From Escherichia coli (GTDB taxonomy: Bacteria; Pseudomonadota; Gammaproteobacteria; Enterobacterales; Enterobacteriaceae), in NCBI RefSeq assembly GCF_003334815.1, contig NZ_QOWO01000103.1: a stretch of 1,227 bases of DNA, one strand, 5' to 3'. The first letter of the stretch is position 1, and every line of letters begins with the position of its first letter. The translations under genes were made by a program, and so were the position numbers. Below the pieces are notes generated by a model that was given only the letters and a program-made list of their open reading frames with translations, ran no database searches and was not told the DNA's origin. This document shows, one piece after another, positions 1-1,227 of the stretch.

Positions 1-1038
1 CGCGTCGTAACGCGTCATCAGTTCGTTCAGGCGTTCTTCTTCCGCCTCCGTCAGCACCGCTTCCGGCTCCGGCAGACTGCGGTATGTTCCGGCATCCTCA
101 CGGCACTCACCGACAGGCTCCATGCGTCCGGCGCACCATTCCCAGCCTTCGGCTTCCCGAAGGTGTTCAGCGACAGCCTGGAGTTTTTCCAGCAGGGCAG
201 CATCGAGCGCAACACAGTCCACATAGCCACCCTCGTCGTCGCTGAACAAATCGGTGCGCAGTTCATCTGGCGAGAAGGCATCAGCCCCCACAAAGCGGAA
301 TTTAGTGTTCCCCGCCACCGCCACTTCACTTTCGGTCACCAGACGACGAATGGTCTGTACATCCGGTTTTCCGCCCCATCCCGACTGGCAGGCGGCTTCA
401 AACACCTGCACCTGACGCGCGGTGTCGTTCTCCAGCGCCAGCGCCTGACAGTGCTCTGTGGTGATGCGGTCTTCTGCCAGCGCATCGAGGATGACAGGCG
501 CAAGGTCTGCCAGTTTCAGCATTCGCTGAACGTGGCGGGGCGAATAGCCCAGCAAATCACCGATTTGTGCAGGCGTTTTGCCTTCCTGCGCCATCGCACG
601 GAATCCGGCAATCTGTTCGGCAGGGTGCATATCCCGACGATGACCGTTTTCAGTCATTGATGCGGCAGTCGCCAGCTCCTGCGGAATAACCTTCACGCGT
701 ACAGGCCAGTCAGCCGGAATGATGCCACGCTCTGCCAGCATGTTGAGTGCAGCCAGTCGGCGACCACCTGCGGCGACACCGTAACGGTCACCAGGCAGGG
801 TATGCACGACCAGATTCTGCAGCAGTCCGACGCCCTTAATGGACTCCGCCAGTTCGCTGACGGACTCCGCAGAATACGGCACCGTGCGCACATTCAGCGG
901 TGATTTAATCAGCGAGGCCAGCGGCACGCTCACTTCCTCCGTCTGCGCCAGCAGGGCAGACAGGACAGTTTCCTGCGTTTTTACAGATTTACGGCTTGCT
1001 TTGCGGGTGGTTTCTGGTTCACACTTCGTTACAGGCAT
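1..1038 (-). CDS. ParB-like nuclease-domain protein (ParB/Srx N-terminal domain plus HTH), N-terminal 346 codons; 3' end runs off the window
   Basis: Hand translation of the reverse complement in the frame whose codons occupy + positions 1-3, 4-6, and so on. That + frame has no TTA, CTA or TCA triplet from 1 to 1131, so the minus frame is open from the in-frame stop at 1134..1132 down to the window edge. The first in-frame ATGs are at 1044..1042 and 1038..1036. An AAGGGG Shine-Dalgarno at 1050..1045 sits 6 nt before the ATG at 1038 and directly abuts the ATG at 1044, so 1038 is preferred. The protein has a GGRRLAA motif (residues 91-97, nt 748..768) resembling ParB box II GERRxRA, preceded by LLQNLVVH, and an HTH-like segment TPAQIGDLLGYSPRHVQRMLKL (about nt 511..576). 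The family assignment is from memory of ParB-family motifs, not a database search. Confidence 0.85.
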   Translation of the reverse strand, partial: MPVTKCEPETTRKASRKSVKTQETVLSALLAQTEEVSVPLASLIKSPLNVRTVPYSAESVSELAESIKGVGLLQNLVVHTLPGDRYGVAAGGRRLAALNMLAERGIIPADWPVRVKVIPQELATAASMTENGHRRDMHPAEQIAGFRAMAQEGKTPAQIGDLLGYSPRHVQRMLKLADLAPVILDALAEDRITTEHCQALALENDTARQVQVFEAACQSGWGGKPDVQTIRRLVTESEVAVAGNTKFRFVGADAFSPDELRTDLFSDDEGGYVDCVALDAALLEKLQAVAEHLREAEGWEWCAGRMEPVGECREDAGTYRSLPEPEAVLTEAEEERLNELMTRYDA

Positions 1039-1044
1039 AATCAT

Positions 1045-1050
1045 CCCCTT
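1045..1050 (-). promoter_or_regulatory. Shine-Dalgarno (AAGGGG) for the ParB-like CDS
   Basis: The minus strand reads 5'-AAGGGG-ATGATT-ATG; the purine-rich hexamer lies 6 nt upstream of the ATG at 1038..1036. Confidence 0.5.
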
Positions 1051-1066
1051 ATAATTGCTTATGTCC

Positions 1067-1090
1067 TGCCGGACGTTCGCGCGTCCGGCA
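1067..1090. repeat. Perfect 9-bp inverted repeat TGCCGGACG-N6-CGTCCGGCA (potential stem-loop or operator) in the intergenic spacer
   Basis: Base-by-base check: + 1067-1075 (tgccggacg) is the exact reverse complement of + 1082-1090 (cgtccggca), with a 6-nt spacer ttcgcg. It lies 6 nt after the DUF905-like stop and about 16 nt before the SD of the ParB-like gene. No U/T tract follows it on either strand. Confidence 0.6.
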
Positions 1091-1096
1091 CCTCTC

Positions 1097-1227
1097 TTAC
1101 TTAAGAATCCCGAAATCCCTGATGTACTGGTTCATCCAGTACCCGGCACCGTCCTCAAAATTCCAGGAGCGCCAGATCAACGTGCCATCCTGACGGACAA
1201 CCAGGCGAAAATGCGTTCCCTGATCAT
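1097..1227 (-). CDS. Small DUF905/UPF0401-like protein, C-terminal 42 codons plus stop; 5' end lies outside the window
   Basis: The minus-strand frame with codons at 1225..1223 and onward translates to [42 protein letters not shown], then a TAA stop (+ strand 1097..1099). This resembles my recollection of the E. coli YkfF C-terminus (..DDQGSHFRLVVRD..WRAWNFE..NRYIR..GI..). It is co-directional with, and 58 nt upstream of, the ParB-like start. Only a partial sequence is visible and the family recall is from memory. Confidence 0.6.

Follow-up and report, generated by a model that had tools for sequence, protein, structure and literature searches.

The Lys/Arg-rich stretch near the start of the ParB-like protein encoded here is a genuine, translated N-terminal tail, and comparison across its relatives shows that it is the charge of this tail, rather than its sequence, that is under selection. 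The tail is situated where partition ParBs have their ParA-binding peptide, yet it does not look like one, and its occurrence does not depend on a plasmid ParA.

The window, by which we mean the whole 1,227-nucleotide stretch of Escherichia coli DNA that was analysed, carries on its minus strand a ParB-like open reading frame of 346 codons, which begins with an ATG at 1038-1036 and is open through the left end of the window (Table 1). The coding sequence is a 100% match to that of an annotated 652-aa “ParB/RepB/Spo0J family partition protein” in NZ_AP017613. This is an IncK2/Z plasmid in which the gene order is ssb, DUF905, the ParB-like gene, psiB and psiA, followed further along by ardA and then mobA/relaxase, so ordered that the ParB-like gene is located in the leading region adjoining oriT. 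Gene order is the same on plasmid F, where the members of the cluster are named ssbF, yfjA, yfjB, psiB and psiA (PMC9849209). The pED208 name for the ParB-like gene is parB2 (PMC8406263), and in UniRef a 97%-identical protein carries the name “Uncharacterized protein YubM”. The protein is the YfjB/YubM/ParB2 orthologue of the leading-region ssb-DUF905-parB-psiB-psiA cluster. The window as a whole is 100% identical to many plasmids and is matched at 90% identity or more in over 5,000 PLSDB records, mostly conjugative plasmids of Escherichia, Klebsiella, Salmonella and Shigella. [quoted passage not shown]

Table 1. Features of the window, with positions counted from its first nucleotide.
Feature	Position	Strand	Basis
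Leading-region ParB-like gene (F yfjB/yubM, pED208 parB2), 5' part, codons 1-346 of 652	1..1038	-	Translation
ParB helix-turn-helix DNA-binding domain, residues 136-222	373..633	-	Pfam PF17762 (HTH_ParB), E=2e-8
ParB/Srx N-terminal domain, residues 41-131	646..918	-	Pfam PF02195 (ParB_N), E=1e-7
Helix alpha-0, residues 23-32 (ETVLSALLAQ), between tail and domain	943..972	-	AF2, mean pLDDT 87 for residues 21-30
Basic stretch, residues 10-22, TTRKASRKSVKTQ	973..1011	-	Translation of reverse complement
Predicted disordered N-terminal tail, residues 1-22 (1-11 hypervariable; 12-22 conserved basic core)	973..1038	-	AF2 and allele identity
Basic core R12-K20 (RKASRKSVK)	979..1005	-	Allele comparison; R12, K13, S15, R16, K17 and K20 invariant in F/I-complex alleles
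Shine-Dalgarno-like AAGGGG, 6 nt upstream of start codon	1045..1050	-	Read from sequence
8-bp G+C-rich hairpin, intergenic between yfjA (DUF905) and ParB-like gene	1068..1089	-	RNA fold
DUF905 gene (F yfjA), 3' end, upstream of ParB-like gene	1097..1227	-	NZ_AP017613 annotation and sequence

YfjB/YubM/ParB2 is a member of the ParB/RepB/Spo0J superfamily, with a ParB/Srx domain followed by a ParB helix-turn-helix. It scores 64.2 bits against TIGR00180, where the cut-off is 58.45, and in a Foldseek comparison with the PDB its first ~210 residues, alone in the protein, match ParB, Noc, Spo0J and KorB with a probability of 1.00. It also matches phrog_7783 (E=9e-256 over residues 37-644), and representatives at 31-57% identity align over their full length. 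For residues 221-652 there is no Pfam match, and for the C-terminal ~430 residues no PDB fold match was found with Foldseek. The nucleotide pocket of the ParB/Srx domain is represented by the motifs LNVR, GGRRLxA and ENGHR (compared with xPR, GxxRxxA and ENxxR), as read from an alignment to Spo0J; within the clade of close relatives described below, R51, G91, R94 and E130 do not vary, and N131 is also a conserved pocket residue. Three positions are substituted: N49 replaces Gln, G92 replaces Glu and A96 replaces the third Arg, and the Gln at the position equivalent to N49 is the residue that was mutated in the hydrolysis-deficient M. xanthus ParB structure. Given pocket motifs that are recognisable and carry these three substitutions, we infer that CTP binding and clamp behaviour are probable.

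The domain start lies near residue 36-41, and the basic stretch is ahead of it as the earlier note had described, Pfam placing the start of ParB_N at residue 41 and that of HTH_ParB at 136. The AlphaFold2 model, built from a 106-sequence alignment, has a mean pLDDT of 91.8, and everything after helix 23-32 is confident. Residues 1-22 are predicted as coil; pLDDT averages 46 over the first ten residues and 63 over residues 11-20. The suggestion of a disordered region thus agrees with the prediction.

Several observations establish the ATG at 1038 as the true start, and therefore that the tail is translated. In an alignment of six alleles, whose divergence over this part reaches about 18%, the codon never changes, and a purine-rich, Shine-Dalgarno-like run precedes it in each of the six, the variability of the spacer notwithstanding. 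The spacer between the hairpin and the ATG has 43% identity and many indels among these alleles, compared with zero indels from codon 1 on. The RefSeq annotation uses the same ATG. The earlier note had allowed that the true start might lie further downstream, and the invariance of this codon, together with the confinement of indels to the upstream spacer, speaks against that. An in-frame ATG at 1044 (MIM..., two codons upstream) was rejected as a start; it is unique to the query allele and abuts the Shine-Dalgarno-like run. Database versions of 678 and 682 aa were likewise rejected as having mis-called starts, because their reading frame would have to extend across the end of yfjA, the hairpin and the spacer with its many indels.

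It is highly improbable that translation begins instead at an internal GTG, codon 38, with a GGAGG 8 nt upstream, in which case the tail would not be made or not always be made. The arrangement GGAGGAAGTGAGCGTG does occur in the query allele, and distant homologs begin 2-10 residues ahead of the PLxxL strand; however, the GGAGG is absent from one allele and is unconserved in the clade, and the upstream ATG keeps its Shine-Dalgarno-like run and its indel-free reading frame in every allele. The basic residues and L30 are moreover conserved at the amino-acid level, which indicates that the tail region is translated.

Translation of the minus strand at 973-1011 gives exactly TTRKASRKSVKTQ, confirming the Lys/Arg-rich tail that the earlier note had read at residues 10-22. 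These 13 residues include five K/R and no D/E (net charge +5), and form the most basic window of that length in the 652-aa protein, the charge of which is -28 overall. When the protein was shuffled, an equally basic window occurred somewhere in the protein in 38% of shuffles but at exactly residues 10-22 in 0.27%. What is unusual is thus the N-terminal placement of the stretch and its conservation, and not the mere presence of a basic patch.

Among F-, I- and K-type alleles, R12, K13, S15, R16, K17, K20 and Q22 are invariant, and residues 2-11, 14, 18, 19 and 21 vary; at R12 the alleles differ by a synonymous change between CGC and CGT. Nucleotide identity among the alleles rises from 76% in codons 1-11 to 88% in codons 12-22 and 95% in codons 23-52. 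The F protein, YfjB/YubM, belongs to the same family and shares synteny with the query; its tail reads MSVTESKAKTERKSSRKPAKTQ and is followed by a helix and domain start identical to those of the query. It is in residues 2-11 that the F-type allele differs from the IncK/I-type query allele.

For comparison at greater distances, 1.84 billion cluster representatives were searched for homologs, returning 1,266 proteins with E<1e-30, and 108 of the full-length matches (at least 590 aa) among the 150 best listed were aligned. The query and 27 relatives (identity of 31-57%, and of at least about 35% in the body) make up a tail clade of 28 sequences. In nearly all members of the clade a tail is present, 17-54 residues long, and leads into a helix with a single well-conserved Leu, the equivalent of L30, which is conserved at 90% or above. 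The column of K17 is conserved at the 70% level or above in the clade alignment, and reading by eye gives K or R in about 25 of the 28. Otherwise the tails are hardly alignable, their pairwise identity being 26%, where the domain reaches 44%. They consist of 25% K/R, 5% D/E, 56% small or polar and 14% hydrophobic residues, and their net charge lies between +3 and +7 in 27 of the 28. In 24 of the 28 members, no more than 5% of the equal-length windows elsewhere in the protein are equally basic. The proteins as a whole are strongly negative: net charges of ten clade proteins run from -20 to -38, with the exception of one chimeric representative at +6. That charge is kept while the tail sequence diverges points to selection acting on charge rather than on sequence. 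The alignment thus bears out, for close and mid-distance homologs, the conservation of basic character on which the earlier note had made its reading of the tail depend.

When identity drops below about 34%, most of the relatives lack a tail and begin just 2-10 residues ahead of the first strand of the domain; the PHROG family profile likewise begins at query residue 37. Due to its absence from most of these homologs, the tail is a clade-specific addition and not a property of the family as a whole. Arg-rich basic tails are nevertheless found on some distant homologs, such as P0187, P0200 and P0238.

In the earlier note the tail was compared with the basic peptide of partition ParBs that stimulates the ATPase of a partner ParA, and a different partner, nucleic acid or simple disorder was left as an alternative. 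The description of the tail as a disordered, conserved segment upstream of the domain holds, but the analogy with ParA stimulation does not. The ParA-binding element is made of large hydrophobic residues around a central Arg or Lys, in an unstructured N-terminus, and acts on a cognate ParA (PMC12462528). What the tail has in common with the ParA-binding motifs of Spo0J and of M. xanthus ParB (residues 11-19) is an unstructured, positively charged extreme N-terminus before the ParB/Srx domain. In contrast to chromosomal ParBs such as Spo0J and to type Ia ParBs, the query tail has neither the motif of hydrophobic residues around a central R/K nor a cognate ParA. The defining motif, of the LG(R/K)GL type, occurs in none of the 28 clade sequences, L30 alone being conserved at the corresponding place. 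Furthermore, the hydrophobic residues of the query are situated in a helix that is confidently predicted by AF2, as opposed to the free peptide of Spo0J and type Ia ParBs.

With the query allele, phmmer did align LSALLAQTE with LEALLPKTG of T. thermophilus Spo0J. We rejected the LSALL/LEALL resemblance as homology of ParA-binding motifs: it is lost at the level of the clade profile, the peptide finds no ParB, and the basic residue at the centre of the motif is lacking, its place being taken by T24 in the query and by an acidic residue in the relatives P0122 and P0124 (checked by eye). When the profile of the 28 clade N-termini was compared with solved ParBs including Spo0J, the alignment began at the domain (profile position 37). 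A search with the isolated 37-residue peptide gave zero ParB matches, its best match being to a ribosomal protein at E=5.5.

The distribution of the tail relative to partition ATPases leads to the same result. An identical basic core is found alongside SopA/SopB on F, alongside a type Ib ParA and its 100-aa partner on the IncK plasmid, and on a plasmid with ParM/ParR only. On F and on the IncK plasmid the par pairs are separate and complete, and the ParB-like gene itself lies between DUF905 and psiB. In the complete IncFII plasmid of the pMccB17 type, where parM/parR are the sole partition genes, no KGGxxK[ST] (deviant Walker A) sequence was found in six frames. Conversely, a homolog without a tail is located a few kb from a ParA. 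The remark in the earlier note that no ParA is visible is correct within the window, but on the source-type plasmid a ParA, paired with a small partner protein of its own, is encoded about 9 kb away. As the tests for the motif and for a cognate ATPase are both negative, and the core is identical regardless of the type of par system, the ParA analogy fails. That the tail is nonetheless an activating peptide of the ParA/MinD type, directed at a Walker-type ATPase of the plasmid or the host, is very unlikely on these grounds, even with its position and make-up in mind, i.e. an unstructured N-terminus before ParB/Srx with positive and aliphatic residues (PMC12462528), and with the Spo0J alignment counted in its favour.

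Two other classes of protein can be compared with the query. Noc is, like the query, an orphan ParB-family protein without ParA, and Noc chains are the best profile and fold matches to the N-terminal half of the query. The N-terminal peptide of Noc binds the membrane, a job unrelated to ParA. Residues 1-22 of the query differ from it in being polar and basic and predicted as coil, with V3 and V19 as the only hydrophobic residues. With so few hydrophobic residues in the clade tails, and two in that of the query, the tail is not an amphipathic membrane helix of the Noc type. Small type Ib centromere-binding proteins (the ParG class) resemble the query as plasmid DNA-binding proteins whose N-terminal tail is disordered and rich in Lys, Arg and Ser, and the 100-aa partition partner of the IncK plasmid itself has such a tail (...NTKKSSDKSSVVSKAKP...). 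However, tails of the ParG class act on an adjacent ParA/ParF, and the query is a 652-aa protein of ParB fold encoded in the leading region, outside a par operon.

The genomic neighbours of tailed and tail-less homologs differ. psiB and/or psiA adjoin all five of the long-tailed loci examined (the query, P0125, P0145, P0164 and P0155), which usually also carry ssb, anti-restriction and methylase genes. psi genes were found at none of eight loci encoding tail-less or atypical homologs; these loci lie beside Fic or an MPTase-PolyVal gene, in a prophage, on a plasmid with KorA/ParA, or in other islands of conjugative elements. The co-occurrence of the tail with psiB/psiA fits a role in the early establishment module. 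It is confounded by phylogeny, since the tailed proteins are each other's closest relatives and descent alone could suffice, and it would fit a protein partner as well as it would an electrostatic arm.

Published experiments describe the behaviour of the gene and its product. In transconjugants, F YfjB is expressed from the single-strand promoter Frpo2 for a short time early on, before ssDNA has been converted to dsDNA (PMC9849209). Since deletion of Frpo2, ssbF or psiB had no significant effect, those authors consider the genes downstream of Frpo2, yfjB among them, to be dispensable for the overall frequency of transfer (PMC9849209). Of six fusions tested in 20-h matings, Cre-ParB2 was translocated most frequently through the pED208 T4SS, at about 1e-3 per donor; Cre is at the N-terminus of ParB2 in this assay, which makes the tail internal (PMC8406263). 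In pED208 lacking parB2, neither transfer nor SOS induction was detectably altered (PMC8406263). In addition, the copy of the ParB-like gene on R100 is interrupted by Tn10, from which it follows that any contribution of the protein is subtle or conditional. Three studies (PMC9849209, PMC8406263 and PMC12672017) report no function for YfjB/ParB2, and we found no description of the tail in them.

The reading that we tentatively put forward, which is possible rather than likely, is that the tail is a putative electrostatic arm for a nucleic acid or an acidic partner, mounted on a probable CTP clamp. The tail (residues ~1-22) is a positively charged N-terminal arm, predicted to be disordered, that was added together with helix 23-32 in the psiB/psiA-linked clade of the orphan ParB-family proteins YfjB/YubM/ParB2. 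The body to which it is attached is strongly acidic and consists of a ParB/Srx domain with most of the CTP-pocket residues, a ParB HTH and an uncharacterised C-terminal domain of ~430 aa. The arm would act electrostatically, as a polycationic tether that raises the contact of an acidic protein with nucleic acid or an acidic surface, the candidate nucleic acids being incoming ssDNA or newly made dsDNA. In ParBs the N-terminal copies are juxtaposed on clamp closure (PMC12462528), and if N-domain engagement in the query follows the pattern of other ParB clamps, a dimer would hold its two arms side by side. Against an electrostatic arm can be set the lack of a detectable effect of the parB2 deletion (PMC8406263) and the split R100 copy, and also that most of the distant members of the family work without a tail. 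The conservation of composition could also reflect a need of solubility or expression, and the correlation with psiB/psiA (five of five loci compared with none of eight) could mark a partner protein instead.

The last two of these objections each lead to an alternative. The tail may be a docking peptide for a partner other than a plasmid ParA. Candidates are products of the same early module, namely SSB of plasmid or host with its acidic C-terminal tail, PsiB and PsiA, and also the T4SS coupling protein; with the coupling protein, the tail would be part of the signal for translocation of ParB2 to recipients. The co-occurrence of long basic tails with psiB/psiA speaks for such a peptide, but descent confounds it, and a specific interface is hard to reconcile with how little of the tail's sequence is conserved. 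Positive charge is a feature of some T4SS signals, but the known ones are C-terminal. The transfer of Cre-ParB2 suits a putative signal somewhere in the protein; it is, however, reported for Cre-ParB2 as a whole protein only, with the tail lying behind an N-terminal Cre (PMC8406263). On balance we consider a docking peptide unlikely. Much the same estimate is given to the opposite extreme, that the tail has no specific molecular function and is a tolerated disordered leader, the composition of which is kept for expression or solubility (A-rich early codons, charge balance). The hypervariability of codons 2-11 and of the upstream spacer, the distant homologs that do without any tail, the loss of the gene without a measured phenotype and the exclusive use of AAA for Lys are all in keeping with a leader of this kind. 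It does not readily account for five basic positions that are invariant while the positions between them change, for Arg codons that are CGC/CGT and not A-rich, for tails that, in 27 of 28 lineages, still carry a net charge of +3 to +7 at ~26% identity, or for the Arg-rich basic tails of distant homologs such as P0187, P0200 and P0238.

A more ambitious form of the proposal, which we regard as doubtful and less probable than either of these alternatives, is that the tail and helix alpha-0 are a dedicated module, gained as an orphan ParB clamp joined the ssb-psiB-psiA establishment operon and coupling the clamp to a specific partner. With similar doubt, the candidates for this partner would be SSB-coated incoming ssDNA, the acidic tail of SSB, PsiB/PsiA, a host MinD/ParA-like ATPase or the T4SS coupling protein, the tail in the last case being a translocation signal. 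Such a module would act in the first minutes after DNA entry, and the tail would, if this is true, be a handle on the function of a protein found on thousands of resistance plasmids. A disordered basic N-terminus on a DNA-binding protein is otherwise an unremarkable feature, and the parent protein is the more interesting of the two. As a charge-conserved, clade-specific segment, the tail nevertheless is a small and cheap experimental entry point to YfjB/YubM/ParB2.

In the window, an Rfam search returned nothing above noise, and a promoter and terminator scan gave just weak antisense consensus matches. The intergenic hairpin between yfjA and the ParB-like gene has stems that are invariant across alleles and a loop that is variable; it belongs to the context of the gene and is no part of the basic tail.

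On the IncK2/Z plasmid L001 (NZ_AP017613), which carries the same ParB-like gene, a separate partition pair is present, comprising a 208-aa type Ib ParA with the Walker A motif KGGVGKS and a 100-aa protein that bears its own Lys/Ser-rich N-terminal tail (NTKKSSDKSSVVSKAKP). On this replicon the tail of the 100-aa partition protein is a likelier ParA-activating tail than that of the ParB-like protein. Long basic tails and psi genes tend to be found together: psiB/psiA are neighbours at all five long-basic-tail loci and at none of eight tail-less or atypical loci (loci compared: L010-L012 and L021 versus L014-L020 and L024-L026). Tail-less homologs are encoded beside Fic, in a prophage tail/holin region, beside an MPTase-PolyVal gene, and on a KorA/ParA/RPA plasmid.

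Features of the ParB-like gene and its surroundings (window coordinates unless a locus is named)
Feature	Position	Strand	Basis or remark
C-terminal part, roughly 430 residues (221-652)	L001 12850-14145; residues 221-346 = 1-378		
CTP-pocket motifs, kept but altered	637-894 (residues 49-134)	minus	sequence
SD-like GGAGG and in-frame GTG, GGAGGAAGTGAGCGTG	925-940 (codons 33-38)	minus	sequence
Hypervariable patch with sharp edges	1006-1067	minus	allele comparison
Sigma-70-like GTTACA-16-TATAAT	1028-1055	plus	10/12 consensus matches
G+C-rich hairpin, 8 bp	1068-1089	minus	between yfjA (DUF905) stop codon and ParB-like start codon
Partition pair of IncK2/Z plasmid	L001 2082-3007	minus (in locus)	type Ib ParA and 100-aa protein
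ParB-like gene split by Tn10	L007 (R100, NC_002134) 34745-45937		between DUF905 and psiB

Alternative starts bear on the extent of the tail. Initiation at GTG codon 38, 8 nt downstream of a strong SD-like GGAGG, could give a tail-less isoform resembling the distant homologs. This internal site is missing in one allele and is not kept across the clade, so the GGAGG is probably a by-product of Glu-Glu codons. In the other direction, many public records annotate the protein at 678 or 682 aa (e.g. P0004 and P0038). The 26-30 residues added in these versions are read-through of the intergenic hairpin and overlap with the yfjA end (window 1039-1130, minus strand), and since the extension crosses the hairpin into yfjA, the longer starts were rejected as mis-called.

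The hairpin itself has arms GCCGGACG and CGTCCGGC, which are identical in all six alleles aligned, and a variable loop (CGCGAA, GGGGATCA, GGGGACA or GGGAACG); the 81-nt region containing it has a fold energy of -24.1 kcal/mol (z = -2.15). No T-run follows it in the window sequence, which rules it out as a classical terminator. Between hairpin and ATG, allele identity is only 43%, with indels, and it is 76% over codons 1-11; the flanks of this patch are far better kept, at 95% for codons 23-52 and 90% for the yfjA end plus hairpin. F-type and I/K-type alleles may meet in this patch at a recombination or mosaic boundary. The sigma-70-like element lies antisense to the ParB-like start region and is directed into yfjA; it is probably a chance match, because its TATAAT falls in the allele-specific spacer.

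Beyond the tail, N49 stands where the QPR box has its catalytic Gln, GGRRLxA is found in place of GERRxRA (G91 and R94 invariant, third Arg missing), and E130 and N131 of the CTP pocket are retained. Motifs retained yet altered in this way suggest that the protein may bind nucleotide with changed hydrolysis. Residues 221-652 are a large uncharacterised domain that matches no Pfam family or PDB fold, although the pLDDT of its prediction exceeds 90 over most of its length; more than 1,000 cluster representatives conserve it.

In R100, Tn10 (tetR/tetB with IS10 copies on both sides) splits the ParB-like gene, yet leaves the N-terminus, including the tail, uninterrupted. R100 is a functional conjugative plasmid, so the ParB-like gene would be dispensable for basic transfer.
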